64,000 nucleotides of DNA from Elusimicrobiota bacterium (GTDB lineage: Bacteria > RUG730 > JBDRED01). Below the pieces are notes generated by a model. It ran no database searches. It was not told where the DNA came from and was given only the letters and a program-made list of their open reading frames with translations. Below are positions 6,654 through 31,676 of the stretch, piece after piece; the stretch's first letter is position 1; every line of letters starts with the position of its first letter. Where the stretch lies: contig JBDRED010000034.1 of the NCBI GenBank assembly GCA_043820025.1, positions 10,253-74,252 on the forward strand. The letters are read 5' to 3'. The translations under genes and the position numbers were made by a program.

Positions 6654-6681
6654 TCCGCAAATAAATAAGGAGATGGTGTAT

Positions 6682-11034: not shown

Positions 11035-11090
11035 AACTTGTGAGACAATGATTGATACAAATAAGCGTTGTCTCCCTAAAGTTTCGGTGT

Positions 11091-13467: not shown

Positions 13468-14436
13468 ATGAAACTAAAGGATTTGTATAAGGCCATAATT
13501 GAGATTGGTATACAGAATGATCCGCGCGGCAAGAATGGCGTGGAAAAAGCGCTTAAGCAGGTAAAGGACTCTTACACAAAGCTGGCGCCTCTTGAAAAAA
13601 ATTATTTTGATACAGAAAAGCTGACTAATCCATATAGCGATTCTCGGATATATCACGGAACAGGCAATGAAGAAATAAAGACTATAATGGTCGGAGTCGA
13701 TATGGAAACGCCGGAACTTTTAGTGGCTGACAGGCTGAGAGAAAGAGGTGAAAAGATTGACGCGGTTATGACGCATCACCCTGAAGGAACAGCATTGCTC
13801 TCGCTTGCTGAGGTTATGTCAATGCAGGCAGATATTATGCATTCATTCGGAGTGCCGATTAATATTGCGGACGGCGTTCTCTCAAACAGAATACGCGAAG
13901 TTTCAGAAGGTGTTTTACCTGTTAATTATTACAGAGCTGTGCGCGCGGCTGAAATGCTTAAAATCCCATATTTCGGAGCGCATACTCCGGCTGATAACTG
14001 CGTGGTCACATACTTACAAAAAATCTTCGATAAGAATAAACCTGAAACAGTTGGCAATGTTTTTGATATTTTAATGAATATTGAAGAATACAAAATATCG
14101 TTAAAGCATAATAACGGCCCGAGGATTGTGTCAGGCTCAAAAATAAAGAGGGCGGGAAAGGTTTATGTTGATATGACCGGAGGCACAGGCGGATCTATTG
14201 ATATGCTCGACAGGCTCGCTAATTCCGGAGTAGGAACAATGATTTGTATGCATATGAGCAAGGATCATTTAGAACGCGCAAAAAAATGTCTTTTAAATGT
14301 TGTTATTGCAGGGCATATGGCAAGCGACTCTTTAGGGCTGAACCTGCTCTTAGACAGCGCGCAAAAAAAGATAGGAAAATTAAAAATAATTGAGTTTTCA
14401 GGATTTACGCGTGTGGAAAGATTTAATAAAAAGTAA
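13468..14436 (+). CDS. NIF3-family (DUF34) dinuclear-metal-centre protein
   Basis: IKTIMVGVDMETPELLVADRLRERGEKIDAVMTHHPEG matches the NIF3 N-terminal block. GTGGS...VIAGHMASDSLG matches the C-terminal block. Linkage to dnaG/rpoD resembles B. subtilis yqfO. Confidence 0.7.
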   Translation: MKLKDLYKAIIEIGIQNDPRGKNGVEKALKQVKDSYTKLAPLEKNYFDTEKLTNPYSDSRIYHGTGNEEIKTIMVGVDMETPELLVADRLRERGEKIDAVMTHHPEGTALLSLAEVMSMQADIMHSFGVPINIADGVLSNRIREVSEGVLPVNYYRAVRAAEMLKIPYFGAHTPADNCVVTYLQKIFDKNKPETVGNVFDILMNIEEYKISLKHNNGPRIVSGSKIKRAGKVYVDMTGGTGGSIDMLDRLANSGVGTMICMHMSKDHLERAKKCLLNVVIAGHMASDSLGLNLLLDSAQKKIGKLKIIEFSGFTRVERFNKK

Positions 14437-14475
14437 GCGATCTCTGCTTTTTGCAGAGAAAGATTGAGAATTGTA

Positions 14476-16266
14476 ATGGCTTTTGATAGAGATGTTTTAG
14501 CAAGAATAATTGACCAAAATAATATTGTAGATATAATAAGCGATTATGTTACATTAAAAAAAACAGGCACAAATTATAAGGGGCTTTGTCCATTTCATTC
14601 GGAGAAAACCCCTTCCTTTATTGTAAGCGCTGAGAAACAGATTTATCATTGTTTTGGATGTCATGAGGGCGGTGATGTTCTAAGTTTTTTAATGAAGGTT
14701 GAACATCAAACCTTTCCGGAAGCTGTAAAAATATTAGCTGAGCGCGCAGGGATAAAAATTGAAGAAACTAATGTTGGAAAGTCTGTTGAGGGCGGCGGGA
14801 TAAAGGATAAGCTCTTTGAATTAAATATGAGGACAGCGGAATTTTTTAATAGGTATATCAAGGATTCAAAAAATGCCGGGCATGCGCAAAAATATTTAAA
14901 TAAGCGCGGCATCTCAGCTAAAATCAGAGACGAGTTTTTATTGGGTTATGCGCCAAAAGGGCCTAACTTCTTGATTAATCTGGCTGCTAAGCAGAGAATA
15001 CAAATGAGTCTTTTGGAGCAGGCAGGGCTTGTTAGAAAATCTGATAATCGCGAAGCAAGATATAAGGATTGGTTTTGGGATAGAATAATATTCCCAATAT
15101 GCGACGCAAGGGGCAGAGTTATTGCTTTCGGCGGACGCGTATTAGACGATGGCGAACCTAAATATTTAAACTCGCCGGAAACAATTCTTTTTAATAAAAG
15201 CGCTACGCTTTACGGGCTTAATAAAGCATTGCCATATATACGCAAGGCAGAAAGAATTATTGTCCTCGAAGGTTATATGGATGTTATTAAGCTTTATGAT
15301 GCTGATATAAAAAATGTTGTTGCCACATTAGGCACTGCATTAACCGAACAGCATATTTCACTGCTTCGGCGGTATACTCGTGAAGTAATCGTTGTGTTTG
15401 ACGGAGATGCGGCCGGCATAGCCGCGAGCTTAAGGACAATAGCTCTCTTTGTTAACAGCGGACTGCATTGCAGGGTTGTTACATTGCCTGAAGGGTTAGA
15501 CCCCGACGATTATGTAAAAAAATATGGCGCGGATGCGTTTAAAAATATTACAAACTCAGCAAATGACGCTTATAAATTTCTTGTAGAGGAAGTGTCAAGA
15601 AAAGAGAATGTTAAAAGTCTTGCAGGGAAGCAGAGGATATGTGAAAAGGTTTTGCCTCTTGTATGTAAGATAGACAGCGCGCTAGAGAGAAACCATCTTC
15701 TGAGAATACTTTCTGACACAATACATGAATCAGAGAATGATCTTTTAGCTGAGTCTAAGAAATATGCCAAGCGCGTCAGCGGGTTTAAGAATGTTAAGGC
15801 TGACAATAATGAAAAACCGGTTAATAAAAATATTTGGCCTTATGCTGAAATAGATTTGCTAAGATTTTTACTGCATCATCCGGATGCGTTGGATTTAGCT
15901 GAGAAAAATATAAATCTTGAATGGATCAGCAATGATTCGATAATTAAAACAATTAAGTGGTTGTTTTTAAACGTCAAAGAATTTAAGACGTTAAACACAG
16001 GAGTAATAATATCTCTTGCGATGAATGAATGGCAGATGCCTGATGTGAATGAGATATTTTCATATGTTTCTGTGGAAGAAACAAAGGATAATGTTGACAC
16101 AAAAAGAATTTTTTCTGACATAGCCGGCGTTTTGAAAAAAAACTATCTGCAAAAACAGCTAAAAGATATTGAGATAAAAATGAAGGATAACAGCGATTTT
16201 AGAGCTAATAAGGATATAATTAACGAGTATGAGAAGATAGTAAAGGAATTAAAGAGAGGCGCTTAA
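14476..16266 (+). CDS. dnaG: DNA primase DnaG
   Basis: It has the zinc-ribbon [30 protein letters not shown], and the Toprim region EGYMDV...VVFDGDAAG. The track start is TTG 14464; ATG 14476 is more likely. Confidence 0.95.
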
Positions 16267-18131
16267 TGAAAAAAAATAAGAAAATTAAAGGCAAAAAAAA
16301 GGTTGTTAATAAAACTAAAAAGAGTGTGTCTGTTAAGTCAAGGCCTGCGCCAAAACCCGGGATTAAAGATAAGCATGAAATGAAACAGGTTGTGAATCCA
16401 AAGGAAGTAAAGGTTGAAGATAAAGATATCGAAAAATTGATCAGGGTTGGCAAATCAAGCGGGCATCTGACATTCGAACAGATTAATAAAAAGCTTAATA
16501 AAAAGGAAATGTCTCCGGAAGAAATGGATGAATTTTTTATTAAGCTTGATGATATGGGGATTGATGTTGTTGACGCTGAGGTTGATGCCGAGCCTGCGCA
16601 GGAAGCTGAGGAAGAGGAAGTAGTTGTAGAAGAAACACATGCCCACGAAGAGGTTCAAACCAATGATTCAATAAAAATGTATCTGAGCGAGATGGGCAGA
16701 GTAGCCCTCCTTACTCGCGATGACGAGGTTGAGCTCGCAAAGCGTATTCGCGAAAACGAAAGAGAGCTTCAAACTTTGGTTTTGGAGTCGCCCATTACTT
16801 TGAAGGAAATACGGCATTGGGATTCTCTTTTAAGAGAAGAAGAAATGACGCCAAAGGAACTTATGCCAAGGGGCAGAAAAACTGACGCGTCTCTTAAAAA
16901 TATGAAAGATAAGATGAAGAAGGTCGCCGGACTTATAAATAAATCCGAGAAAAAATTAAACAGCATTCAAAAAGCTTTAAATGTCAAAAGATTATCGGAT
17001 AAAAGGAAGGCAGACTTAGAAGAAGCGTTTAAAAATGAAAATAAGACGATAATTAATAATATTATAGGGCTTAATCTTAATTTAGAGAAGATGAAACGCT
17101 TGACAAACAGGATTAAACAGCTGGCGCAAAAAGTTCGCGAAACAAAGAATGAAGAAAAAGAACTATTAGCAAATGTAAAGGTTCAGCCGGACGAATTTAA
17201 AAAGGCCTATAATAAAGTAAACAGAGGAAGCTTTACTAAGACTAAATTTACTAATCTAACCGGATGTAAATGGCCTCAAGCAGATAAGATAATAAAGGAT
17301 CTTAAGATTATTGAGATTAAGCTCGTAAGGATTGAGGAAAATATAGGAATTCCTTTAAATGAAATTGATCATATTTATGACACTATCATTAAACTTGAGG
17401 ATAAAATACGTAACGATAAGATGAGGCTCATTAGAGCAAATCTTAGGCTGGTTGTGAGCATAGCGAAAAAACATATTAATCCCAATTTATCATTGCTGGA
17501 TCTTATACAGGAAGGAAGCATAGGCCTTATGAAGGCTGTAGATAAGTTTGAGTATAGGCGTGGGTTTAAGTTTTCAACATATGCTACATGGTGGATTAGG
17601 CAGTCTATAAATCGCGCAATTGCCGATCAGGCGCGAACTATTCGTATTCCTGTGCACATGAAAGAGATGATAAGCAAGCTGGGTAAGATTTCCAGAAAAT
17701 ACAGACAGGATTTTGGAAGAGATCCAAGGCTGGAAGAATACTCAAAAGGACTAAGAATGCCTGCGGATAAGGTGCGGCAGGTTTTAAAAATTATGCAGGA
17801 TCCTATCTCTCTAACAACGCCAATAGGCGATGAAGAGGATAGTTATTTAGAGGATTTTATTGAAGATAAAAACCATATTACTCCTGCAAAAGCCTCATCT
17901 GAGCTTTTGCGTCAAAAAGAGGTTGAGAGAATATTAAACACATTAACGCCAAAGGAAGCAGAAATTATTAGGCTTAGATTTGGCATAGGTTCAGGATATC
18001 CGCGCACTCTCGAAGAAGTAGGTAAAATTTTCAACGTTACGCGCGAACGAGTAAGGCAGATAGAGGTTAAGGCAATAAAAAAATTGAGGCATCCATCCAG
18101 GAGCAAATTTTTATCAGAATATTTAGAATAG
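16266..18131 (+). CDS. rpoD: RNA polymerase sigma factor RpoD (sigma70) with a Lys-rich N-terminal extension
   Basis: Region 2 ([33 protein letters not shown]) and region 4 ([20 protein letters not shown]) are present. The start overlaps the dnaG stop in a TAATG arrangement. Confidence 0.95.
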
Positions 18132-18148
18132 TCTGCAATTTAAATTTT

Positions 18149-18222
18149 GGGCCCATAGCTCAGTTGGTTAGAGCAACTGACTCATAATCAGTGGGTCGTA
18201 GGTTCAAGTCCTACTGGGCCCA
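18149..18222 (+). tRNA. tRNA with anticodon CAT (elongator Met, or lysidine-modified Ile2)
   Basis: A cloverleaf was folded by hand: acceptor GGGCCCA/TGGGCCC, anticodon loop CTCATAA (CAT at 18183-18185), T-arm GTAGG-TTCAAGT-CCTAC. G1-C72 and the anticodon stem rule out an initiator. No CCA is encoded. Confidence 0.9.
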
Positions 18223-18267
18223 TAATCAAATATTTTTAACATTAGTTTTACTTGCTTTTTAGCAGGA

Positions 18268-19026
18268 TTGGAGAAGTTTGTGAATAATGAAATAAATAAG
18301 CTGATTGAATTACAGAAAAAAGATATTGTTATACAGGGAATTGTTAAAAAAAAGAATAATATCCCGGTTCTTATTAAAGGATTGAATGATAAACTTGCAG
18401 GCTTTAGCCAAAAATTAACCGAAGATAAACAAAACTTCGAACAGAATCAGGTCGCTAGAAAGGAATTAGAGTTAGAATTAGGTTCTATTGAAGAATCTAT
18501 TAAGAAACATCAGAGAGAACTTAATTCTGTGAAAACAAATGATGCGTACCAGGCGCTAATAAGAGAAATTGCCGATGATAAAAATCAGAAGGATGAATTG
18601 GAAACCAAGATCCTTGAGAATATGGATAAACAAGAAAGCATTAATAGCGTTTTAGGCGCTGACAATAAAGATATGGAAACAGTTAAAAAGAATACTCAGG
18701 ATGAGATTTCAAATTTGGAAGAAGAACTGAATAAAATCAGCGCTGAGTTAGGCCAATTAAATAAAGATCGTGAGACAATAGCCGAAGCTATTCCTAAAAA
18801 GATGCTTACCTTGTATGATAGGATTCGAATCAGCAAAGGCGGCGTGGCTATTGTTGAGGTGATTAATGGCTGCTGTAATGGATGCCATATGGCTTTAGCT
18901 CCTCAAAATATAGATGATGTAATAAAGAATAAGGACATTGTTGTATGCGGTATTTGTAATAGGATACTTTACGTCAAGGACGAGAATATCGAGTCCTTAA
19001 AAAATGATCCAACCTTAAAAGGTTAA
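18268..19026 (+). CDS. COG1579/DUF164-type coiled-coil protein with a C-terminal C4 zinc ribbon
   Basis: A long coiled coil is followed by CNGCHMALAPQ...VVCGICNRILY. The start is uncertain (TTG 18268, or GTG 18280 preceded by GGAGAAG). Confidence 0.75.
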   Translation: MEKFVNNEINKLIELQKKDIVIQGIVKKKNNIPVLIKGLNDKLAGFSQKLTEDKQNFEQNQVARKELELELGSIEESIKKHQRELNSVKTNDAYQALIREIADDKNQKDELETKILENMDKQESINSVLGADNKDMETVKKNTQDEISNLEEELNKISAELGQLNKDRETIAEAIPKKMLTLYDRIRISKGGVAIVEVINGCCNGCHMALAPQNIDDVIKNKDIVVCGICNRILYVKDENIESLKNDPTLKG

Positions 19027-19028
19027 AA

Positions 19029-19622
19029 ATGATTCCAGTAAATAAGCTTCTAAATCTTCTAGCGCAAAATAAATCACTCAATGAAATATCTGAAATTCTT
19101 AGTTGTAAGACAAATGAAATAAAAAGTATTCTTTTAAAAATAGCAGATTCGTATCATGACCCTAAATCCGAGTCCGTATCTGACGGTAAATTAGAAAAAG
19201 ACGGGAAAGTTTTGGTTTTTAGCGACGGCGCGTCAAGAGGCAATCCCGGCCCGAGCAGTATAGCCTGCGTGATTTTAAACTCAAAAAAACAAGAAATTAC
19301 GCATGCGAATAAATATATAGGAAAGGCTACAAATAATGAAGCGGAGTATATGGCAATATTGTTAGCTCTTGATAGGCTTGATGAGATGCAAGGCGTAAAA
19401 AGCGTAGATTTTTTTACAGATTCGCAGTTGGTTGCAAGACAAATTAATGGCGAGTATAAGGTTTCAAATAATAGAATATTAGAATTCGTTCAGTTATTCA
19501 TGGATAGAATAAAAAAATACCCGGTATTTTCAATAACCCATATACCGAGAGGGGAAAATAAATACGCGGATATGCTGGCAAATATGGCTTTAGACGAACA
19601 TATAAAAAGTTTTAAGTTTTAA
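19029..19622 (+). CDS. RNase HI-family ribonuclease with a ~55-aa N-terminal extra domain
   Basis: The RNase H-fold catalytic blocks are present: VFSDGASRGNPGPSS, ATNNEAEYMAILLAL, TDSQLVARQINGEYKV, NKYADMLAN. Confidence 0.85.
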   Translation: MIPVNKLLNLLAQNKSLNEISEILSCKTNEIKSILLKIADSYHDPKSESVSDGKLEKDGKVLVFSDGASRGNPGPSSIACVILNSKKQEITHANKYIGKATNNEAEYMAILLALDRLDEMQGVKSVDFFTDSQLVARQINGEYKVSNNRILEFVQLFMDRIKKYPVFSITHIPRGENKYADMLANMALDEHIKSFKF

Positions 19623-19735
19623 GCGCTAAGTTTCAAGTTAAATAAAAAATTAGAACTTTAAAGTGTAAAATTGAGGGAAAATTGAATAACTTATTATTAC
19701 CGGATCTCAGATTAAGCTTTATTAACTAATATATT

Positions 19736-20054
19736 TGCAGGATAGATGGTCGCTGTGAAAGCAATTTCATAGAGGAAAGTCCGGACTCCGGAGAGCAGAA
19801 TGCTCACTAACAGTGAGGCCCTGATAACTCAGGGATGGAAAGTGCAACAGAAAATATACCGCCCCGGCGTTATGCCTGGGTAAGGGTGAAAAGGCGAGGT
19901 AAGAGCTCACCGTCCTTATTAGTGATAATAGGGACTTGCAAACCCCATTCGGAGCAAGATCAAATATAAGGGAGAGGTGGCTCGTCTCGTCTTACCTTGG
20001 GTTGATCGCTTAGATAAATGACTATCAAATACAAAATCCGGCTTATTTCCTGCA
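19736..20054 (+). ncRNA. rnpB: RNase P RNA (bacterial type A), compact at about 320 nt
   Basis: Universal conserved regions are present: AGAGGAAAGTCCGGAC (19771-), ACAGAAAATATACCGCC, GGTAAGGGTGAAA, GTAAGAGCTCACC and ACAAAATCCGGCTTAT. The P1 helix is TGCAGGA (19736-) paired with TCCTGCA (-20054). The ends are accurate to about 10 nt. Confidence 0.9.
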
Positions 20055-20093
20055 GAAATAAATTAATCGCTCAATAGTCTTTTGCGGAGTTTT

Positions 20094-21659
20094 ATGGGAA
20101 ATAATCGGGTAAATTCAGATGTGTTGATAATAGGCAGCGGCGCGGCCGGACTTAGCCTGGCTCTGAGATTAGCCTCGAAATACAAAATAAATGTAATTTC
20201 TAAGGCAGGCCTAGAGGAATCAAGCACCTTTTACGCGCAAGGCGGTATTGCTGCCGCATGGGACGAAAAGGACTCGTTGAACGAACACATAAATGACACA
20301 ATAATCGCCGGCGACGGGCTTTGTAAAAAAAATGTAGTGAGCGCTGTAATTAAAGAAGGGCCGGGTATTATTAAAGACCTTATTGATTGGGGCGTAAAAT
20401 TTACTAAATGCGATTCAGGCTCAGGAGAATTCGATCTTACAAAGGAAGGCGGTCATACAAAACGCAGAATATTTCATAAAGATGATACAACCGGAGTAGA
20501 GATTGAAACAAGTCTATCTAATAAAGTTAAGAAACAAAAAAACATTTCTGTATACGAATATCACATAGCCATAAATTTAATTAAACACAAACAAGCATGC
20601 TGCGGCGCGTATGTTCTCAATGAGAAAAAAGGCAGCGTAATAACCTTTTGCGCTCCTATTATTGTTTTAGCAACAGGCGGAACAGGTAAGGTGTATGTTT
20701 ATACAAGCAATCCGGATACTGCTACAGGCGACGGAATTGCTATGGCTTATCGTATAGGCGCTAAAATAAGTAATATGGAGTTTATGCAGTTTCATCCAAC
20801 ATGTTTATACCATCCTAAAGCAAAATCATTTCTTATCTCTGAAGCTGTCCGAGGGGAAGGCGGTATTTTAAGGCTTGCAAATGGAAAGGCTTTTATGCAC
20901 AAATATCATAAATTGGGTTCGCTTGCGCCTAGGGATGTTGTGGCCAGGGCAATAGATTGCGAGATAAAAAAATCAGGCGACGTTTGTGTTTTTCTTGATA
21001 TAACGCATAAAAATAAAAATTTTATAAAAAAACGTTTTCCAAATATTTATGAGAAGTGTTTATTATATGGAATTGATATTACTAAAGAACCGGCGCCTGT
21101 GGTTCCGGCAGCGCATTATATGTGCGGTGGGATAAAGATTGATATGAATGGGCGCACTAATATCAAAAATTTGTATGCTGTAGGCGAAACTGCGTGCACA
21201 GGGCTTCATGGGGCAAACAGGCTTGCAAGCAATTCGCTGCTTGAAGCTTTTTTTACATCGAAACGAGCGGCTGAATATATAAAAAATAATTTTCCAAAGA
21301 TCGCTATTCCTAAAATAAAGCCTTGGAGCATAGGAAAGGCTGTAGATAGTAACGAACAGGTAATGATCACGCATAATTGGTATGAACTGCGCCGGTTAAT
21401 GTGGAACTATGTAGGTATTGTCAGGTCGAATGCCCGCTTGGCCAGAGCAAGGAGCAGAATAAAACTGCTCATTAGCGAGATACAGGAGTATTATTGGGAC
21501 TTTACTGTAACAGCTCCTCTGATTGAGCTAAGAAACCTAGCGACAGTTGCAGACCTTATAATACGCAGCGCGCAAAAAAGAAAGGAATCCAGAGGGCTTC
21601 ACTATAGTCTCGACTATCCAAAAAAAAATCCCAAAAAAGCAAGAGACACGGTTCTGTAA
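20094..21659 (+). CDS. nadB: L-aspartate oxidase
   Basis: It has the FAD-binding motif DVLIIGSGAAGLSLALRL plus STFYAQGGIAA and RLASNSLLE, and resembles NadB over its full length. The track start is TTG 20082; ATG 20094 is chosen. Confidence 0.92.
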   Translation: MGNNRVNSDVLIIGSGAAGLSLALRLASKYKINVISKAGLEESSTFYAQGGIAAAWDEKDSLNEHINDTIIAGDGLCKKNVVSAVIKEGPGIIKDLIDWGVKFTKCDSGSGEFDLTKEGGHTKRRIFHKDDTTGVEIETSLSNKVKKQKNISVYEYHIAINLIKHKQACCGAYVLNEKKGSVITFCAPIIVLATGGTGKVYVYTSNPDTATGDGIAMAYRIGAKISNMEFMQFHPTCLYHPKAKSFLISEAVRGEGGILRLANGKAFMHKYHKLGSLAPRDVVARAIDCEIKKSGDVCVFLDITHKNKNFIKKRFPNIYEKCLLYGIDITKEPAPVVPAAHYMCGGIKIDMNGRTNIKNLYAVGETACTGLHGANRLASNSLLEAFFTSKRAAEYIKNNFPKIAIPKIKPWSIGKAVDSNEQVMITHNWYELRRLMWNYVGIVRSNARLARARSRIKLLISEIQEYYWDFTVTAPLIELRNLATVADLIIRSAQKRKESRGLHYSLDYPKKNPKKARDTVL

Positions 21660-23275: not shown

Positions 23276-23444
23276 TACGCGCCGCAACGCGTCATTCTCC
23301 TATTCTCTGTAATTGCGGGGAGCATAAGAGGCTTGCCTCTAAGCCGACGCGGCAAAATCATTCTAAATTCTGACTTTTGTTTGGTCTTTTATTTTCTTCA
23401 TATTTCTTTCATCTTTATTTCATAATTAATGAATAGTATCACGG

Positions 23445-23473
23445 TTGACAAACCCCATTACCCAGGGTAAAGT
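23445..23473 (+). promoter_or_regulatory. Candidate promoter (TTGACA-17-TAAAGT) of the pilin module, with an upstream palindrome TTCATAATTAATGAA (23419-23433)
   Basis: The hexamers were read directly. The -10 element is weak and the implied 5' UTR is very short. Confidence 0.3.
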
Positions 23474-23490
23474 TAATTGGGAGCAGGAAT

Positions 23491-23874
23491 ATGAATATAC
23501 TTAAAAAAATTATTTCAAACAAAGGATTTACGTATATTGAAATTATCGTTGCAATGGTAATTTTATCTTACGTTATTTTAGCATTTACCAGGGTCTTTAT
23601 GGGTGGTGTATTAACCGCTAAAAATATGGAATTTAAAACAGTGGCGTATAATTACGCTATTGATGAGGTAGAACATGTGCGCAACCTTGCATATAATGAT
23701 GTCACAAATTTCACAGAGCAAAGGGTATTAAGCACAGGCAAGAAGTTTACTATTACAAGAATAATTACTGTGATAGAAGCGGATATTTTAAAGCAGGTGG
23801 ATGTGGTAGTCTCATGGAAGGAAGGAGGAGATACTAAGACAACCAGTATGACTACGCTGGTTGCTCAGTATTAA
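23491..23874 (+). CDS. Type IV pilin-like/pseudopilin protein (prepilin N-terminal cleavage/methylation motif)
   Basis: The N-terminus MNILKKIISNKG|FTYIEIIVAMVILSYVILA has a Gly-Phe cleavage site, Glu at +5 and a hydrophobic helix. Confidence 0.8.
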   Translation: MNILKKIISNKGFTYIEIIVAMVILSYVILAFTRVFMGGVLTAKNMEFKTVAYNYAIDEVEHVRNLAYNDVTNFTEQRVLSTGKKFTITRIITVIEADILKQVDVVVSWKEGGDTKTTSMTTLVAQY

Positions 23875-23900
23875 TAAATTATTAAAAGGAGGAAGTAAAT

Positions 23901-25100
23901 ATGAATAAAATCTTGTTTAATAAAAATTTTAATAATCAAGGTGAAGCTCTTCCTTTAATAACATTTATTATACTGATAGTTGTAGTTCTTGGCGCTGCAA
24001 TAACGCTTATGGTAAGAGAAGAAGTAAAAGAATCAACAATGCTTAGAGGAGGGAATGAAGCGTTATATATTGCAGAAGGAGGAGCGCACAAAGCTATAAG
24101 CAAAATTACTTCAAGTAGCGAGGAATTTACAGGTGAAGGGGATGTTCCTCTCGGAAAAGGAATGTATACAGTCACAGTAACTAATCAGGGTAATGATCTT
24201 TATGAAATAATATCTACAGGGTATATACCAAACAGCAGTAATCCTAAACATGCGAGAAGACTGCGTATTTTATTCGCGCTTGCCTCAGACGATCCAAGCA
24301 GAGGATTTGTTCAGGACGAGGCGTTCAATTATGCAGCTGTAGGCAATGATAACCTGTATATTAATAATATGTCAATAATAAATTCAGCAAATCCCGGTAA
24401 TCAAGGCAATATCAGGTCTAACGCAAATATTACATGCGAAAATGGAGCAATAGTTAATGGCAATGCTTATGCTGTCGGGAGCATTAATCTTATTGGCGCA
24501 TCTGTAATAAATGGCACGCAAAATATAGGACAAGCAGTACTTGCATTGCCTGAAATAGATTTAGATTATTATAGCCAAAAAGCTAAGGAAGGCGGGGTTT
24601 TAGAGGGTAACCAAACATATAGCAGCGGCATAACTAATTTAGGGCCGGTGTATATTAATGGAGACCTTGTTATAGAAAACACAGCTATTGTAAACCTTAC
24701 GGGCGATATATATGTGAAAGGCAATATCTCGCTTCATAATACATCGTATGTTAAAGGCGGATATGTAATATGCGCTGAAGGCACTATTTTAGCAAAAAAT
24801 CTTGCGTATGTCGGCCAAGGCGATAATATTACAGCTATAATAACATCAAATAATACCTCTCAAGCTATTGTGCTTCAAAACGCGTCAGTTACGTCAAAAG
24901 CTATTTACTATGCGCCTAAGGGTTCGTTAAAGGTTCGAAACGCAGCAATAATAAATGGGTGTCTTGTTGCTAAAAATTTGGAAATATCAAACGGCGCTAT
25001 TGTTAATCATATGATAGATATTAATCTTGACCTGCCTGGAGCGAATGCTATAGGTGGAGAGAATAGAGTCGTATCGTGGAGAGAGATATCAATTGAATAG
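23901..25100 (+). CDS. PilX_N-like minor-pilin-type protein with a C-terminal beta-helix-like repeat body (paralog 1)
   Basis: A hydrophobic N-terminus (GEALPLITFIILIVVVLGAAITLM) is followed by GNEALYIAEGGAHKAIS, which is like the PilX N-terminal AEAG motif. About 250 aa of Gly/Asn/Val-rich repeats follow (NGNAYAVGSINLIGASVINGT; VYINGDLVIENTAIVNLTGDIYVKGNISLHNTSYVKGGYVI). Confidence 0.6.
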   Translation: MNKILFNKNFNNQGEALPLITFIILIVVVLGAAITLMVREEVKESTMLRGGNEALYIAEGGAHKAISKITSSSEEFTGEGDVPLGKGMYTVTVTNQGNDLYEIISTGYIPNSSNPKHARRLRILFALASDDPSRGFVQDEAFNYAAVGNDNLYINNMSIINSANPGNQGNIRSNANITCENGAIVNGNAYAVGSINLIGASVINGTQNIGQAVLALPEIDLDYYSQKAKEGGVLEGNQTYSSGITNLGPVYINGDLVIENTAIVNLTGDIYVKGNISLHNTSYVKGGYVICAEGTILAKNLAYVGQGDNITAIITSNNTSQAIVLQNASVTSKAIYYAPKGSLKVRNAAIINGCLVAKNLEISNGAIVNHMIDINLDLPGANAIGGENRVVSWREISIE

Positions 25101-25124
25101 ATATTTATAGCATGGGGGAAGTGT

Positions 25125-26342
25125 ATGAAGAAAATATTGTGCAGGTGTTTTTCCGGGCTTGGAAATAACACAGGCGCTGTTCTTCCGTTAGTTCTGTTTA
25201 TCTCAACTATTTCTGTTATCCTTGCGGCAGGTATTACCATTATGATAAATGAAGATATAAAACAAACTATTATGGTAACAAGAGGAAATGAAGCGCTGTA
25301 TATAGCTGAAGGCGGAGCGCATAAAGCTATAAGCCAAATATTAGCTGCTGCGGGCGCATATACAGGCGAATCCGATACTGCGTTAGGAAAAGGTGCGTTC
25401 ACGGTAAATGTAACAAGCCTCGGAAATAGTCTATATGAGATAATTTCTACAGGGTATATTCCTGATAGTTTAAATCCCAAGGAACAAAGGCGTATTAAGG
25501 TTATATTTATTTTAGGCGCGACAACCGGCTCAAGCAGCGGTATTCAGTTTGTTCATGATGAAATATTCAGCTATGTGCTTGCGGCTAAAAACGGGCTTAA
25601 TTTAACTAATGCCTGCACAGTAAATTCAATAAATCCGTCTAACTCAGGGCATATTTATTCGAATGCCGATATTTTATGTAAAAACGCTGTAGTTGTTAAT
25701 GGAGACGCATATGCTGTAGGCACGATTACACTTCAAAACGCGTCTGTGATTACCGGATCGAAAAATCCGGGTTCTTCTCCAATAGTATTTCCGCCGGTTG
25801 ATGCGGATTATTACAAAGCAAAAGCTCAGGAGGGCGGAACTCTGACAGGAGACCAAACATTTACAAGCGGCGTTACAACGCTTGGCCCTGTATATATAAA
25901 TGGAAATTTAACCGTTCAAAACACAGGCAGTGTTATATTAGCGGGCTGTATTTACGTGACCGGAAATATTACGTTAAAAAATACAGCGTATATGAAAGGC
26001 GGATATGTAATTTTTTCTGAGGGAATCATTGAGACAAGAAACGCAACTTATTTTGGAGCGTCGAGCGAGACAACCGCTGTAATAACAACCAGCTCTTCGA
26101 ATCCGGCCATTAAGCTTGGGAATGCCAGCGTTAGTTCTAATTGTATTTTTTATGCTCCGGACGGTGGTATAGAAATTTCGAACGCGTGCACCATAAAAGG
26201 GTCATTAGTGGCGGATAGTATAAATATAAAAAATGCTTCACAGATAAACCTGATGTCAGACAACACTCTTGATCTTCCCGGTTCGACAAAGGTTTCGCAA
26301 GAAAGCAAGATCATTTCGTGGAAAGAGATTCCAATATCATAA
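25125..26342 (+). CDS. PilX_N-like minor-pilin-type protein with a beta-helix-like body (paralog 2)
   Basis: It aligns end to end with the 23901 gene. Identical strings include GNEALYIAEGGAHKAIS, LYEIISTGYIP, LGPVYING and KGGYVI. Many synonymous differences separate the two genes at the DNA level. Confidence 0.6.
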   Translation: MKKILCRCFSGLGNNTGAVLPLVLFISTISVILAAGITIMINEDIKQTIMVTRGNEALYIAEGGAHKAISQILAAAGAYTGESDTALGKGAFTVNVTSLGNSLYEIISTGYIPDSLNPKEQRRIKVIFILGATTGSSSGIQFVHDEIFSYVLAAKNGLNLTNACTVNSINPSNSGHIYSNADILCKNAVVVNGDAYAVGTITLQNASVITGSKNPGSSPIVFPPVDADYYKAKAQEGGTLTGDQTFTSGVTTLGPVYINGNLTVQNTGSVILAGCIYVTGNITLKNTAYMKGGYVIFSEGIIETRNATYFGASSETTAVITTSSSNPAIKLGNASVSSNCIFYAPDGGIEISNACTIKGSLVADSINIKNASQINLMSDNTLDLPGSTKVSQESKIISWKEIPIS

Positions 26343-26389
26343 TAAATATGCTATAAAAAAATATTACCGGTAAAATAGAGGCGGGTTAT

Positions 26390-26893
26390 ATGAAATCGTT
26401 TTTTAGTAAAAAAATGTTGTTAGGTTTTACTCTTATAGAATTAATGATTTCGGTTGTTTTGATGGGTATTGTAGGCCTTGCTATTACAAGTTATTTTTCA
26501 GATATTTTTAAACAATGGTTTAAGGTAAGCAATCAGATATCTTCCCAGCAGGAAGCAAGAGTAGTTATTGAAGAGATGACAAGTTTTATTAGGCAGTCTT
26601 CAAATCCTGTGGCAGGCATGTCTCCTGCGATAGGCGCTGCTTCGTCTTCAGAGATATCATTTCTTTATTCCGGAAGTCAGGGCAATAAACAAATGAAGTA
26701 TTATAAAAATGGAGACGAATTATTTAGAGTTGTTAATGGCGTAACATCTACAGTAATTCATGGGGGGCTTCAGAGCGTTTATTTTACGCATGTGTCAAGT
26801 TATGTAGTGGAAATTGGAAGCATGGTTGTGCGTTCCGGCGACGATGTATTTGAAATGAATAAGACGGTTTATTTAAGGAATAGAGAATATTAA
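26390..26893 (+). CDS. Type IV pilin-like/pseudopilin protein (prepilin N-terminal motif)
   Basis: The N-terminus MKSFFSKKMLLG|FTLIELMISVVLMGIVGLAI is a canonical GFTLIE motif with Glu at +5. Confidence 0.8.
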   Translation: MKSFFSKKMLLGFTLIELMISVVLMGIVGLAITSYFSDIFKQWFKVSNQISSQQEARVVIEEMTSFIRQSSNPVAGMSPAIGAASSSEISFLYSGSQGNKQMKYYKNGDELFRVVNGVTSTVIHGGLQSVYFTHVSSYVVEIGSMVVRSGDDVFEMNKTVYLRNREY

Positions 26894-26905
26894 TATTTAG
26901 GAGAT

Positions 26906-28630
26906 TTGCATTCTTTGGCTCAAAATAATCCTACTAGTAAACATGATAAATTTTATTTATTTGTCCCTCTTATGCTTATCGCGGTTATACTCATATGTTA
27001 CACGCATACCTTAAAGTTTCCTTTTTTATGGGATGATGAAGTTATAATAGTTCAAAATCCTGCTGTGCAGGACGCTGATGCTGTTAGATATATTTTTAAG
27101 ACAACATTATTCGGCGGAAAAGCTGACCAGGGCACATTTTACAGGCCTCTTCATGTGCTTTCCTATATCATGGACTACAAAATATCCGCGCTAAACACAA
27201 TCAGCTATCATATTACAAATACAGCGCTCCATACAGGAATTGTATTGTTGATTTGGTTTTTACTTCAATTAGTCGGAATTAAGAAAAAAATAGCGTTCGT
27301 AACAGCCTTTATATTTGCTGCGCATCCTATTAATACTGAGGCAGTTATTTATATTTCTGACAGGGGCGACCTTCTATTTACATTTTTTTCTTTATGCAGT
27401 ATCTACTCATTTATTAAGGGTTCTTCAGGTAAAAAGATTGGTTATATTATTAGTGTAGTAACCTTTTTAATAGCTTTATTCTCAAAAGAGACAGCTGTTG
27501 TTGTGCCATTTATCCTCGCAGTATATTCGTGGATGTTTTTGCGAAAGAATAAGGATTTTCTCCGGAAGATTGTTTTATCTCTTCTAATCGCTATAGCTGT
27601 TGGCTACACATTTAAACAGATTGGGTATATCGGAGTATCATCTAAGACAACGCTTTCTTTAATAGCGCACGCGTCAATTTGGGAGCGAGTGTTAACATTT
27701 CCAAGAATAGTATTTACTTATATTGTTTTATTGGTTTTCCCGTATCACCTGCATATGGAATATATGTTTGTTGTTAGAAGTGCTGTGAGCGCGTATATTT
27801 GGCTTGGCGTTCCATTAATAATTTTTATAATTTATTTATTAATTAAATACGTTAAGCCGAGAAAAATAACGGTTTTTTTTCTTCTTTGGTTTTTTTTAGC
27901 GCTTGGGCCTTTTTATAATTTGGCGGTGGCTCTTGCGTCAACAGTTAGAGAACATTGGGTGTATTTCCCGAGCATTGGTTTTTTTACTGTTCTTACAACA
28001 GGCGGGTTTCAATTATATGAATCAATAAATAAGAAAATTTTAAAAAAAGTATTTCTGCTGTTAGTGGCGGCGCTTGGAATTTATTATGTTAGTTATACAA
28101 TAGTAAGAGGCAGAGACTGGAGCAGTCCCGGAAAACTATATCTGAATGATGTTAGATATGAGCCGCTGAGTTTTACGCTTCATAATAATGTCGGAGTAGA
28201 ATATTTTAGAAGCGGAAATTTGGAAGAGGCAAGTAAGGCGTTTTTAAAGGCTATTGATACTGCGCCAAACAAATCGTTTAATATGGCGTACACTAATTTA
28301 GGCGTGATTTACGAGAGAAGCGGCGAAAATGAAAAGGCTTTAGAGATGTATGAAAAAAGCGTTAATGTGTCTGACTCCCAGATTGGGTATAGTAATTTAG
28401 GCAATATGTATCTAAAGTTTGCAAGATATGATAACGCGATAAATGTGTTAAAAAACGCGGTTGAGTTATATCCTATAAGCCTGGAGTTGTTATATAAACT
28501 TGCTGCTGCCTATTATTTGAAAGGCGATCTTGTAAATGCCTATAATACATTCTTGCGGGTCGAGAAAATACAGGCAAATTACGAGCAGACAAGGACTGCG
28601 TTAAGTGAGATAGAGAGAATACTAAATTAG
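26906..28630 (+). CDS. Polytopic GT-C-type (PMT/ArnT/TMTC-like, DUF1736-like) glycosyltransferase fused to C-terminal TPR repeats
   Basis: About 11 predicted TM helices are present. The loop WDDEVIIVQNP...FYRPLHVLSYIMDY...HITNTALH is typical of TMTC-like proteins. The C-terminal ~170 aa are TPR (AYTNLGVIYERSGENEKALEMYEKS...). The start is uncertain: TTG 26906 is only 2 nt from AGGAG, and ATG 26972 is the alternative. Confidence 0.65.
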   Translation: MHSLAQNNPTSKHDKFYLFVPLMLIAVILICYTHTLKFPFLWDDEVIIVQNPAVQDADAVRYIFKTTLFGGKADQGTFYRPLHVLSYIMDYKISALNTISYHITNTALHTGIVLLIWFLLQLVGIKKKIAFVTAFIFAAHPINTEAVIYISDRGDLLFTFFSLCSIYSFIKGSSGKKIGYIISVVTFLIALFSKETAVVVPFILAVYSWMFLRKNKDFLRKIVLSLLIAIAVGYTFKQIGYIGVSSKTTLSLIAHASIWERVLTFPRIVFTYIVLLVFPYHLHMEYMFVVRSAVSAYIWLGVPLIIFIIYLLIKYVKPRKITVFFLLWFFLALGPFYNLAVALASTVREHWVYFPSIGFFTVLTTGGFQLYESINKKILKKVFLLLVAALGIYYVSYTIVRGRDWSSPGKLYLNDVRYEPLSFTLHNNVGVEYFRSGNLEEASKAFLKAIDTAPNKSFNMAYTNLGVIYERSGENEKALEMYEKSVNVSDSQIGYSNLGNMYLKFARYDNAINVLKNAVELYPISLELLYKLAAAYYLKGDLVNAYNTFLRVEKIQANYEQTRTALSEIERILN

Positions 28631-28737: not shown

Positions 28738-30765
28738 ATGCTGACAATTACGAATTTAAAAGAGAAAGCAAAAGAATTTGGATATAGGATAGAGCTGCCT
28801 GTTTTTGAGAGAACGTCGGATGAGATTAGGGTAAATGCAGCTCATTCAATGAATGAGGCAGATAAGGAGCTGGATTCAATAGCTGCGCTTTGGGATGAGG
28901 ATTTGAGTTTTAAAAATACGATGGTAAGGCTTGATGATATTTTTTATAAGATAGGCAATGTGTATTCGAGAATTATCTTTATTATGAACACCAGTCCTTT
29001 AAAAGAACTAAGGGAAACTTGCGAAGAAATGATTTTAGAGCTTGAAAAATGGAGGATTAAAACAGAATATAGAGAGGATATATATGATAAAGTGAGTAAG
29101 TGTTCCGTAAAGATAAATAATTTGCATGGCGAAGATATCAGGCTGTATGATCATATTTTGGAACGGTATAAACGGCTTGGTTTTGGACTAGGAAAAGAAT
29201 CAAAGGATGAGATAAAAAAAATTAAACAAGAACTTTCCGCGCTTGAGACAAGTTTTGCGGCAAATATTCGCGAGGATACTATAAAAATCAAATTCTCTTC
29301 TGAAGAACTGAGCGGAGTGCCTGAGGATATGCTGAGCGAATTTACGCGTGATGATTCCGGCGAATATATCATTAATCCAAAATCAGCATCCATTGTGACA
29401 AAGATAATGCAGAACGCTAAGCCGGAAGAAACCAGAAAAAAGATTTATACAGCGCGGCTTAATGTGGCAAAGGATAAGAATATTGAAGTCCTGGATAATG
29501 CTGTGCGGCTAAGAGCGCGCTTGGCTAAACTATTGAAATATGAGTCATGGGCAGACTATAAATTAGATATAACAATGGCTAAAAAAAAGGAGACTGTTGA
29601 AAAGTTTATCTTTGGCTTGCGCGACAAATTAGATAATAAATTTAGAGATGAATTAAGCGTATTTGAAAATATGAAAAAAAATGACACCAAAGATGACAGT
29701 TCTAAAATATGCTCTTGGGACATAGCGTATTATGTTAATAAGCTCGTTAAGGAACGTTACAATATTGACCTTAACGAACTTCGCAAATATTTTGAGTATG
29801 ACAGAACGCTTAATGGTATGTTTAAAATTTTTGAAAAGGTGTTTGGGATAAAGATAAATGAGGTTGAGTGCAGTTATAAATGGGCGCAAGACATAAAATT
29901 ATACGCAATCTTGGATGGAATAAAGGATGAACCGCTTGGCCTGTTTTATCTGGATATGTTCCCTCGTGATGGGAAGTTTAATCATTTTGCCGAGTTTGGT
30001 TTATTTGGCGCAAAAAAAATCGGAGATAATATTTATCAAAGGCCTGTCGCGGCGCTCGTCTGTAATTTTGACAGGCCCGGCGCAGATACTCCGTCATTAC
30101 TAACGTACAGCCAGGTTGACACATTGTTTCATGAATTTGGGCATGTTCTGCACTCACTATTAACAAAAGCGAAGTATATAGAGCATTCCGGCACTAATGT
30201 TCCGATTGATTTTGTCGAGGTGCCTTCGCAGGTTCTGGAATACTGGATAGAGGACAAAGATATAATTAACAGCTTTGCTGTTGATTATAGAGATAAAACT
30301 AAAAAAATACCTGACAGCTTTTTGGACGCTATGAAGGAAATAAAAAAAATAAACATTGCTGCGCATTACAGAGCTCAAATGGCGTACAGTCTTATTGACA
30401 TAAATCTGCATTCAAAGCTGGATGAGAATCATAAAGAAGATCTAGTCAGATACACTAATAATATTTTAGAAAAAACATATATGGCATTACCGCTTGATAC
30501 GGCTTTTATCGCCGGGTTTGGGCATTTGATGGGCTATGACTCAGGGTATTACGGTTACGCTTGGGCTGATGTTATATCAGCGGATATAGCATTGCAGTTT
30601 AGCTCGAGTAAGCTTGGTTTTTTTAATAATAAATTAGGTATTAAGTTTAGAAAAGAAATTCTTGAACAAGGCGATGGCAGGCCTGTTGAAGAATCTTTGA
30701 GAGCGTTTTTAGGCAGAGAATACTCAATAGACTCATTTTTTAAAAAATGCGGGATAAGGGAGTGA
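28738..30765 (+). CDS. M3-family zinc metallo-oligopeptidase (thimet oligopeptidase/oligopeptidase A-like)
   Basis: The HEXXH zinc motif lies in TLFHEFGHVLHSLL, with a downstream EVPSQ, and the length is typical of M3. Confidence 0.88.
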   Translation: MLTITNLKEKAKEFGYRIELPVFERTSDEIRVNAAHSMNEADKELDSIAALWDEDLSFKNTMVRLDDIFYKIGNVYSRIIFIMNTSPLKELRETCEEMILELEKWRIKTEYREDIYDKVSKCSVKINNLHGEDIRLYDHILERYKRLGFGLGKESKDEIKKIKQELSALETSFAANIREDTIKIKFSSEELSGVPEDMLSEFTRDDSGEYIINPKSASIVTKIMQNAKPEETRKKIYTARLNVAKDKNIEVLDNAVRLRARLAKLLKYESWADYKLDITMAKKKETVEKFIFGLRDKLDNKFRDELSVFENMKKNDTKDDSSKICSWDIAYYVNKLVKERYNIDLNELRKYFEYDRTLNGMFKIFEKVFGIKINEVECSYKWAQDIKLYAILDGIKDEPLGLFYLDMFPRDGKFNHFAEFGLFGAKKIGDNIYQRPVAALVCNFDRPGADTPSLLTYSQVDTLFHEFGHVLHSLLTKAKYIEHSGTNVPIDFVEVPSQVLEYWIEDKDIINSFAVDYRDKTKKIPDSFLDAMKEIKKINIAAHYRAQMAYSLIDINLHSKLDENHKEDLVRYTNNILEKTYMALPLDTAFIAGFGHLMGYDSGYYGYAWADVISADIALQFSSSKLGFFNNKLGIKFRKEILEQGDGRPVEESLRAFLGREYSIDSFFKKCGIRE

Positions 30766-30770
30766 GTAGT

Positions 30771-31676
30771 ATGAAAAAAAATATTTTAGTATTTACTTTA
30801 ATATTTTTAAGCGGCTGCGGTCTTAAAAATTATCAGAAATCCACATTTTTAGGAGCTGCTGCAGGAGCTGCTGCATCAGCTGTAATAGTTAATGATTCAA
30901 AGAGGGTGGTTGAGGGCGCAGTAATAGGCGCTATGACAGGCGCTTTGATTGGCAGGGGAATAGCGTGTTTACTATTTAATTGCGGGGATGAGATAGAAAG
31001 ATTAAAACGTGAAGCGTATGAGCGAAGGCTTGCTGAAGAGCAGAGGCTTGCTGAAGAGCAGAGGCTTGCCGAAGAGCAGAGACTTGCAGAAGAACAGAGG
31101 CTTGCAGAAGAACAGAGGCTTGCCGAAGAGCAGAGACTTGCAGAAGAACAGAGGCTTGCCGAAGAGCAGAGGCTTGCTGAAGAGCAGAGGCTTGCCGAAG
31201 AGCAGAGGCTTACTGAAGAGCAGAGGCTTACTGAAGAGCAGAGGCTTGCCGAAGAGCAGAGACTTGCTGAATTGAAAAAAAGAGAGGAAATGCAAAGGGC
31301 TGCAGAGGAAATGTTGAAAGCTGATAATGACGCAAAGCTTGTTCTTGAAGGAATAAATTTTGAGTCAGACAGCGCAATATTAAGCGAGGATTCCGAGAAA
31401 ACGCTTGATGATGTTGCCGGCGTTGTGGTAAATGATAAGACAGGAGTTATTATTGAAATCACGGCGCATACAGATAGTATAGGCTCAGAGGAATATAATC
31501 TAAATCTTTCCCAGAAAAGAGCTGATTCGGTTATGAAATATTTAATGTCAAAGGGAGTAAATCAAGATAAGCTCAAAGCTAAGGGTATGGGAGAGAGCAG
31601 TCCGTCAGTTTTAAATGACACAGAGGAAGGCCGCGCTAAAAACCGCAGAATCGAGTTTAAGGTAATAAAGAATTAA
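30771..31676 (+). CDS. OmpA-domain lipoprotein with a glycine-zipper segment and a (RLAEEQ)n coiled-coil repeat spacer
   Basis: The lipobox is LIFLSGCG and the Gly-zipper is GAAAGAAASAV...GAVIGAMTGALIGRG. About 13.8 hexapeptide repeats follow. The C-terminal OmpA-like domain reads LEGINFESDSAIL...HTDSIGSEEYNLNLSQKRA...NRRIEFKV. ATG 30771 is preceded by AAGGGAG. Confidence 0.88.
   Translation: MKKNILVFTLIFLSGCGLKNYQKSTFLGAAAGAAASAVIVNDSKRVVEGAVIGAMTGALIGRGIACLLFNCGDEIERLKREAYERRLAEEQRLAEEQRLAEEQRLAEEQRLAEEQRLAEEQRLAEEQRLAEEQRLAEEQRLAEEQRLTEEQRLTEEQRLAEEQRLAELKKREEMQRAAEEMLKADNDAKLVLEGINFESDSAILSEDSEKTLDDVAGVVVNDKTGVIIEITAHTDSIGSEEYNLNLSQKRADSVMKYLMSKGVNQDKLKAKGMGESSPSVLNDTEEGRAKNRRIEFKVIKN
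31026..31274 (+). repeat. 18-bp in-frame tandem repeat, about 13.8 copies (AGGCTTGCTGAAGAGCAG and synonymous variants)
   Basis: Read directly from the sequence. It encodes RLAEEQ x10, RLTEEQ x2, RLAEEQ x1 and a partial RLAEL. The units differ mostly at synonymous positions. Confidence 0.95.

Follow-up and report, generated by a model that had tools for sequence, protein, structure and literature searches.

Two groups of described proteins join a type IV pilin fold to a large beta-solenoid. In Thermus thermophilus ComZ (PDB 6QVI), a GspK-like pilin domain is combined with a solenoid whose relatives are ice-binding proteins of the FfIBP type (PMC6561018). ComZ carries Gly at position 5 and escapes recognition by PilFind; it binds its neighboring minor pilin PilA2 (PMC6561018, Salleh et al. 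2019) and has been argued to occupy the pilus tip (PMC6561018). All cyanobacterial PilX homologs, among them PilX1-3 of Synechocystis and the PilX-Com and PilX-EPS/HpsA subfamilies, likewise have a pilin fold with an ice-binding-protein-like beta-solenoid before the C-terminal strand and lack Glu5; they occur as several paralogs per genome, in strict co-occurrence with a PilV-type partner and in FimT-PilW-PilV-PilX priming complexes, and their solenoid has been proposed as a tip plug that replaces PilY1 (bioRxiv 10.64898/2026.02.12.705559). Here we analyze a cluster of five genes, all on the + strand between positions 23491 and 28630 of a 64,000-nucleotide stretch (hereafter, the window) of the 81.8-kb contig JBDRED010000034.1 from an Elusimicrobiota metagenome-assembled genome (MAG), which encodes two small prepilins, two proteins of about 400 aa between them and a membrane protein with TPR repeats. 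Most likely, this cassette is the core minor-pilin operon of a type IVa-pilus-like filament, specifying its priming or tip complex, and the ComZ-like cap pilin in it is duplicated. Because ComZ and the cyanobacterial PilX proteins have already been described, it is a further member of a known design and not a new kind of system. A first-pass annotation of the window had placed the five open reading frames (ORFs) at these coordinates and had suggested a tip or priming complex presenting a beta-helix on a pilus, which is also the reading that we find most likely; it had in addition called the large proteins unlike known minor pilins and their arrangement undescribed, a view that gives way to the ComZ crystal structure and the cyanobacterial PilX proteins, in which the same design is seen.

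The two central genes, at 23901-25100 and 25125-26342 (both + strand), are annotated in the database as encoding hypothetical proteins (ABH857_04370 and ABH857_04375; MFH1715409 and MFH1715410). Their products, of 399 and 405 aa, are paralogs with 51-52% identity that have NEALYIAEGGAHKAI in common, and the solenoid, at 50% identity, is less conserved between them than the pilin domain, at 62%. The N-terminus of the first reads …NNQG/EALPL… and that of the second …GNNTG/AVLPL… (a slash follows residue -1), both without Glu5. In the family alignment, the Gly at -1 (Gly17) that precedes the hydrophobic helix is kept in at least 90% of members, and the residue at +5 is L, I, M, G or F but never E in the 11 sequences with an N-terminus (P0010 is the sequence without one). 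The missing Glu5 is a hallmark of the PilX/GspK cap subunit (bioRxiv 10.64898/2026.02.12.705559, introduction), and we assign the large proteins to the PilX/GspK class because of the conserved Gly at -1 and the absence of Glu at +5. This agrees with the first-pass annotation, which had recognised four genes of the type IV pilin class and had taken the two large ones to be PilX-like with a beta-helix.

We modelled the 405-aa protein with AlphaFold2 from a 10-sequence alignment and obtained a mean pLDDT (predicted local distance difference test) of 79.3. In the model, a disordered leader (residues 1-17) is followed by a 55-residue helix (19-74), four strands (81-87, 90-100, 103-111 and 121-129; pLDDT of 71-86 over the pilin part), a poorly modelled linker, a beta-solenoid of ~230 residues (~150-375, pLDDT mostly >90) and a conserved terminal strand (395-402, …IISWKEI). 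As modelled, the N-terminal part is a pilin "lollipop" fold. The beta-helix that the first-pass annotation had guessed from repeats is borne out both by the modelled solenoid and by Pfam DUF7305 (PF23981, gathering cutoff 27), which the 405-aa protein passes at 32.1 bits and below which the 399-aa protein stays at 18.5 bits. The DUF7305 model, which is matched by 9 of 12 family members, spans part of the solenoid only (~259-375) and carries no functional annotation, and a full-text literature search for "DUF7305" returned no paper.

A Foldseek search of the PDB with the 405-aa model ranked ComZ first (6qvi_A, E = 8.7e-5, probability 0.99), and this was the only match with E < 1e-3. The next matches were ice-binding proteins of the DUF3494 type, such as FfIBP (4nu2), with E values of 3e-3 to 3e-2, probabilities of 0.8-1.0 and TMt values of at most 0.50; the 399-aa protein matched Pfam Ice_binding with E = 1.3e-3, below the cutoff. 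Two further candidates were rejected at this point: weak matches to bactofilin, also below the cutoff, reflect a generic beta-helix repeat only, and a true ice-binding function was set aside as a likeness of fold only, which is the conclusion that was reached for ComZ as well.

The window proteins and ComZ are alike in combining a GspK-like pilin fold with a large triangular beta-solenoid of the ice-binding-protein kind, in their atypical N-termini without Glu5, and in being encoded among small canonical minor pilins. They differ in that no sequence similarity is detectable between them and the TM-score is 0.21, in the size of the solenoid (~230 aa in the window, ~380 aa in ComZ) and of the whole protein (~400 aa compared with 554 aa), in the duplication of the gene in the window, and in the host, a mesophile-like Elusimicrobiota MAG. 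With the cyanobacterial PilX proteins they share the missing Glu5, an order of elements that would fit a solenoid placed before the last strand, the likeness to ice-binding proteins, a PilV-like partner and the presence of paralogs, although the phylum is another, the likeness is one of description and not of sequence comparison, and the window cassette has two small partners where the cyanobacterial FimT-PilW-PilV-PilX complexes have three. Among the NCBIfam Hps models, HpsB and HpsC gave weak N-terminal matches to the two small pilins (E = 0.007-0.09) and none matched the large window proteins. The comparison extends to minor-pilin operons with PilX or GspK, in which small minor pilins with Glu5 also accompany a larger cap without it, often apart from pilBCD and pilMNOPQ and with the same priming and tip logic; unlike the window proteins with their beta-solenoid, however, GspK has an alpha-helical insertion and Pseudomonas aeruginosa PilX is small, the window cassette has no PilY1 homolog, and its scores against the Pil and Gsp equivalog models are below cutoff.

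The family to which the large proteins belong is very large. A word-indexed search found 10 relatives, and an exhaustive profile search returned 18,262 representative clusters (50% identity) at E ≤ 1e-3, 1,058 of them at E ≤ 1e-30; most members are 380-430 aa long and match from end to end, and the 399-aa window protein itself scores E = 4.7e-132. A pair of hypothetical proteins and a Pfam domain of unassigned function can thus be annotated as ComZ/PilX-type beta-solenoid cap pilins of a type IV pilus priming complex. The design extends beyond Thermus and cyanobacteria to Elusimicrobiota, Saccharibacteria, Chloroflexota, Planctomycetota and Zixibacteria, and this wide spread supports the solenoid-bearing PilX proteins (hereafter, solenoid-PilX) as a common alternative to PilY1, as tip plug or adhesin. 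We also observed a sub-class of ~580-640 aa, for example in Saccharibacteria (10022-11788 in locus L012 and 1138-2904 in L013), in which the profile matches in two separate stretches, implying that the pilin part is divided from the solenoid by an extra domain of ~200 aa. Next in closeness to the large proteins is a homolog of 386 aa with 32% identity (5845-7005 in locus L006), a solitary gene that has no small pilins beside it and sits between a predicted outer-membrane-like protein and smpB.

The two small genes that flank the paralogs encode canonical prepilins. The first (23491-23874, + strand, 127 aa) has the leader MNILKKIISNKG/FTYIE and the second (26390-26893, + strand, 167 aa) the leader …KKMLLG/FTLIE, so that both have a class III signal peptide (KG/FTYIE and LG/FTLIE), in which a short basic leader ending in Gly at -1 precedes Phe at +1, Glu at +5 and a hydrophobic alpha1N. 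A six-frame scan of the window turned up no canonical prepilin motif besides these two. The first-pass annotation had read the same signal peptides, and both proteins pass NCBIfam TIGR02532 (18.6 bits for the 127-aa and 19.5 bits for the 167-aa protein; cutoff 16.3). Pfam N_methyl (cutoff 21.2) is passed by the 167-aa protein at 24.0 and narrowly missed by the 127-aa protein at 18.3. Profiles of the two families match solved pilins (geopilin, PilA, MshA, PilE and GspG) along alpha1 only, over the N-terminal ~35-50 residues, with best E values of 2.3e-5 for the 127-aa family and 2.4e-8 for the 167-aa family. The membership of both proteins in the type IV pilin superfamily is firm.

Sub-types are assigned with less confidence. 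The 127-aa pilin has weak, sub-threshold matches to PilV (E = 6.5e-6) and, over nearly the full length of the model, to GspI (E = 9.8e-6; 26.0 bits vs a cutoff of 44.35), and the 167-aa pilin matches several pseudopilin models through its N-terminus only. Other NCBIfam equivalog scores, namely 11.8 and 14.7 for GspJ (cutoff 64.85) and 18.9 for GspH (cutoff 80), are far lower than required; every Pil and Gsp equivalog model stays below its cutoff for the window proteins, and GspK gives no match. From size and gene order, the 127-aa protein would be a PilV/GspI-like pilin and the 167-aa protein is likely a PilW/GspJ-like or FimU/GspH-like partner. Orthologs of the 127-aa pilin lie immediately upstream of a solenoid-PilX gene in L001, L002, L007, L008, L012/13, L014, L016 and L017, and the 167-aa family co-occurs across loci with the families of the 127-aa pilin and of solenoid-PilX. 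Membership in a Verru_Chthon cassette, to which there are N-terminal helix matches only, far under the cutoff, was rejected, as were Tad/Flp-type TadE/TadG pseudopilins, for which the leader motif is different and no Pfam match of that kind was found.

We compared the genomic context across fourteen GTDB loci, annotated with phmmer, from Dehalococcoidia/Chloroflexi, Saccharibacteria, Planctomycetia, Zixibacteria, Elusimicrobia and unclassified bacteria. The trio of a 127-like pilin, a 167-like pilin and a solenoid-PilX recurs in these loci; five distinct ones have it next to pilB, pilC or pilM, and elsewhere it stands alone. Solenoid-PilX genes accompanied by minor pilins and type IV pilus assembly genes were found in L002-4, L008, L010, L018 and L001/5, and the PilB in relatives is an MshEN-domain protein annotated as a type IV-A assembly ATPase. 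In L002-L004 the order is pilB, pilC, three pilin genes (135, 137 and 221 aa), the gene of a 393-aa homolog of the large proteins, pilM, pilN and pilO. The closest relative, a single-amplified genome (L001), is syntenic with the window, with mgtE followed by the genes of a 124-aa pilin, three DUF7305 proteins, a 163-aa pilin and a 563-aa TPR protein, and its pilB-pilC lie three genes upstream of mgtE. Directly downstream of the cassette in L001, on the - strand (13484-21197), we noted the gene of a protein that exceeds 2,600 aa and contains three or more Ser/Thr protein-kinase domains.

No PilB, PilC, PilM, PilN or PilO was found with phmmer among window ORFs of at least 70 aa, and Pfam scans of 25 window proteins gave no T2SSE, T2SSF, peptidase_A24 or secretin domain. 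The first-pass annotation had also seen no pilus machinery in the 64 kb and had taken the module to be self-contained and stand-alone; this view fails, as relatives hold the genes inside or beside pilB-pilC and pilMNO operons. A minor-pilin operon apart from the machinery genes is instead a recurrent and unremarkable arrangement, since the trio stands alone in other loci as well and that of L014 (Elusimicrobia UBA6262), which has the window order of a PilV-like gene, a PilX-like gene with NTALYIAEGGVRKAI and a 167-like gene, is flanked by housekeeping genes only. In P. aeruginosa, too, fimU-pilVWXY1Y2E is separate from pilBCD and pilMNOPQ.

Several observations weigh against the assignment to a ComZ-like minor-pilin operon. 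Type IV pilus machinery is absent from the window and would have to be encoded elsewhere in the MAG; many Elusimicrobiota MAGs encode PilB, and in a search with the PilB of the closest relative, the best Elusimicrobiota match (P0160, MFH0948069) was from another MAG. Canonical core sets have three small pilins and PilX, compared with two small pilins here, and there is no major pilin nearby. Pfam PilX_N (PF14341) has no match at E ≤ 1 in either large window protein and is weak in 3 of 12 family members (best E = 0.0036); the "PilX_N-like" anchor of the first-pass annotation was a resemblance noticed by eye, which stands as regards a PilX/GspK-like N-terminus and falls as regards that Pfam family. 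That the solenoid is inserted ahead of the last strand is suggested by the order of secondary-structure elements in the model. The low global TM-score to ComZ points to a different domain arrangement or length. At E ≤ 10, ComZ was matched neither by phmmer with the 405-aa protein nor by the family profile; neither search of PDB sequences returned any match, and ComZ was found by the fold search only. Because of the TM-score, the lack of a sequence link, the unmatched PilX_N and the way in which the topology was derived, the assignment is to a class and not to a family: the large proteins belong to the structural and functional class of ComZ, not to its sequence family.

We infer the following course from complex formation to a ligand-binding tip. 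PilD would process the 127- and 167-aa prepilins, which bear Glu5, at G/F, and the small pilins would bundle through their alpha1 helices with one of the two Glu5-less solenoid-PilX proteins into a priming complex like GspI-J-K on the PilC platform. This complex would nucleate a filament on a PilB/PilC/PilMNO(Q) machine whose genes would lie outside the window; as PilB drives the addition of major pilins underneath, it would be pushed outward and stay at the distal tip. There the solenoid, probably too bulky for the body of the filament, may serve as tip plug and as a ligand-binding head for adhesion or DNA capture. The two paralogs, which differ more in the solenoid (50% identity) than in the pilin domain (62%), plausibly provide alternative tips or heads. 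The protein with transmembrane (TM) segments and TPR repeats encoded by the last gene is probably a mere co-transcribed neighbor.

That last gene (26906-28630, + strand) encodes a 574-aa multi-TM and TPR protein, a putative GT-C glycosyltransferase resembling PMT_2 and TMTC proteins. Its C-terminal TPR repeats are unambiguous in Pfam, it has at least eight hydrophobic segments, and its AlphaFold2 model (pLDDT 92.6) has an all-helical TM domain, with a Foldseek list dominated by TPR proteins. The protein itself reaches no GT-C Pfam model, the best being TMTC_DUF1736 (E = 0.074; 13.5 bits vs a cutoff of 27). Its homologs frequently do so: P0279 (48% identity, E = 3.6e-107) and at least 11 others carry PF13231, PF08409 or PF02366 is present in further homologs, and names such as GT39 or protein O-mannosyl-transferase occur. 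When 12 TM-only sequences were scanned, 4 matched PMT_2 (best E = 9.5e-10), whereas the window protein (member 1) had no GT-C match, and a TM-only profile found no sequence relative in the PDB. Residues D43-D44 are invariant within the motif F-x-W-D-D-E directly after TM1, which we take to be the catalytic signature of GT-C enzymes. The protein is thus similar to TMTC/PMT (GT39-like, GT-C) O-mannosyltransferases with TPR repeats in its N-terminal multi-TM region, the invariant DD after TM1, the C-terminal TPR repeats and homologs that match PMT_2, PMT and TMTC_DUF1736, and differs from them in having no Pfam GT-C match of its own and no solved sequence relative. The GT-C/TPR label of the first-pass annotation therefore holds directly for the TPR part, and for the GT-C part it is a reasonable family-level assignment by transitive homology.

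Whether this protein acts on the pilins is a separate matter. One notion is that it O-glycosylates the cassette pilins in the periplasm, recognising them through its TPR repeats. Its gene and the last pilin gene are 12 bp apart and probably co-transcribed, the adjacency is kept in L001, and the enzyme would belong to a PMT_2/TMTC-like family with an invariant DD motif. Pilin-adjacent glycosyltransferases are familiar from Pseudomonas (TfpW/TfpO) and Neisseria (PglL). In cyanobacteria, a TPR-containing Ogt adjoins major pilin genes and so offers a precedent (bioRxiv 10.64898/2026.02.12.705559). The linkage to the cassette, however, is confined to the window and L001, from related genomes in which the unrelated mgtE, too, lies upstream in both; the TPR gene is not linked to the cassette in L014, L019, L020, L021/22 or any other cassette, the three closest homologs that we looked up lie among ribosomal, RF-1 and GcpE genes, and the family is very widespread without pilin linkage. 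Such a role in pilin glycosylation is possible yet unsupported, and on balance we regard it as unlikely. The functional membership of the TPR protein in the pilin module, which the first-pass annotation had assumed, is doubtful on the same grounds.

A more ambitious extension of the minor-pilin reading joins this idea to others. Here the tandem solenoid-PilX paralogs (two in the window and three in L001) would be interchangeable tips of different specificity on one machine, the GT-C/TPR protein would glycosylate them or their partner pilins, and DUF7305 would be a general tip plug or adhesin of type IV pili, replacing PilY1, across many uncultured phyla (candidate phyla radiation, Chloroflexota, Planctomycetota and Zixibacteria). 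If true, Elusimicrobiota would have a lineage-specific "programmable, glycosylated pilus tip", but as a whole we think this rather improbable.

We also considered that the cassette might form the GspI-GspK-GspJ-like tip of a type II secretion pseudopilus, or belong to another filament outside the type IVa pili, such as a competence pseudopilus or an MSHA-like one, and not to a surface pilus. The near-full-length, sub-threshold GspI match of the 127-aa pilin points in this direction, as do the occurrence of family members in Saccharibacteria and Dehalococcoidia loci and the case of ComZ, whose pilin domain is closest to GspK (PMC6561018) and which acts in a competence-specific filament. In relatives, however, the genes sit with PilM, PilN and PilO and with a PilB of the MshEN-domain type IV-A kind; no GspC, GspD or GspL was seen in any locus, Gsp scores are far below their cutoffs, and the distinction is in part semantic, the assembly logic being identical. 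We judge this reading improbable.

Still less credible, and in our view very improbable, is that the ~400-aa proteins have ordinary signal anchors and act at the surface as beta-helix proteins (an adhesin, or an ice- or polysaccharide-binding protein), secreted or held in the membrane, which lie beside pilins by chance and never become part of a filament. In favor of this reading, Pfam PilX_N is unmatched, and proteins of the ComZ type are missed by PilFind (PMC6561018). The solenoid does resemble ice-binding proteins and, weakly, tapirins, and the solitary member in L006 has no small pilins beside it. Set against this, at least five phylum-level groups have conserved the trio, which sits inside type IV pilus operons, Gly -1 is conserved, and the AlphaFold2 model shows a 55-residue alpha1 and a pilin sheet in place of a simple anchor. 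We give almost no credence to the self-contained, undescribed cassette of the first-pass annotation, without dedicated machinery and with the GT-C/TPR protein as an integral part: the 64 kb are indeed free of machinery genes, the genes are spaced tightly enough to suggest a common transcript with the TPR gene and the five-gene order recurs in L001, but the architecture is known from ComZ and cyanobacterial PilX, the cassettes of relatives lie three genes from pilB-pilC (L001) or inside type IV pilus operons, the GT-C/TPR gene is missing from L014 and all other cassettes while its closest homologs are not pilin-linked, and the polymerisation of type IV pilins is known to require an ATPase, a platform and a prepilin peptidase.

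Within the minor-pilin operon that we favor, the five genes are separated by gaps of 12-47 bp, consistent with a single transcript. The 215 bp that separate mgtE from the first pilin gene (23276-23490) contain TTCATAATTAATGAA at 23419-23433, an inverted repeat with 5-bp arms and a non-palindromic centre, and a promoter-like site at 23445-23473, neither of which is significant or conserved. The exact TTCATAATTAATGAA pattern was present at least once in 20 of 100 shuffles, so that what had been noted as a palindrome is at chance level, and promoter-like and terminator-like sites also occur at shuffle frequency. In L001 (7160-7170), a single nucleotide separates the stop codon of mgtE from the first pilin gene, which is probably co-transcribed with this Mg2+ transporter gene. 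Because of this 1-nt spacer, an intergenic region of its own, with which the first-pass annotation had credited the operon, is not a conserved property.

The genes around the cluster are housekeeping genes, including nadB, mgtE, the gene of an M3 peptidase, uvrB, the his operon and genes of ribosomal proteins. Several other genes of the window drew our attention. At 77-3364, a 1095-aa protein with fn3 repeats has a C-terminus with a sub-threshold match to CHU_C, a sorting signal of the type IX secretion system, and is followed directly by a PorV-like outer-membrane protein (3441-4718); the two look like a cargo and shuttle pair of the type IX kind in an Elusimicrobiota MAG. Two adjacent large ORFs at 7747-11034 (1095 aa) and 11052-12707 (551 aa) have no Pfam match at E ≤ 1e-3. 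A 752-aa protein (47393-49651) has a hydrophobic, membrane-like N-terminus and a spermidine-synthase-like Pfam domain at residues 278-436. Finally, an OmpA-family lipoprotein (30747-31676; Pfam OmpA, 3e-23, with a Gly-zipper) contains 13.7 tandem copies of an 18-bp unit (31026-31271) that encode (RLAEEQ)n, a long, charged helical spacer of perfect periodicity that separates the OmpA domain from the membrane anchor.

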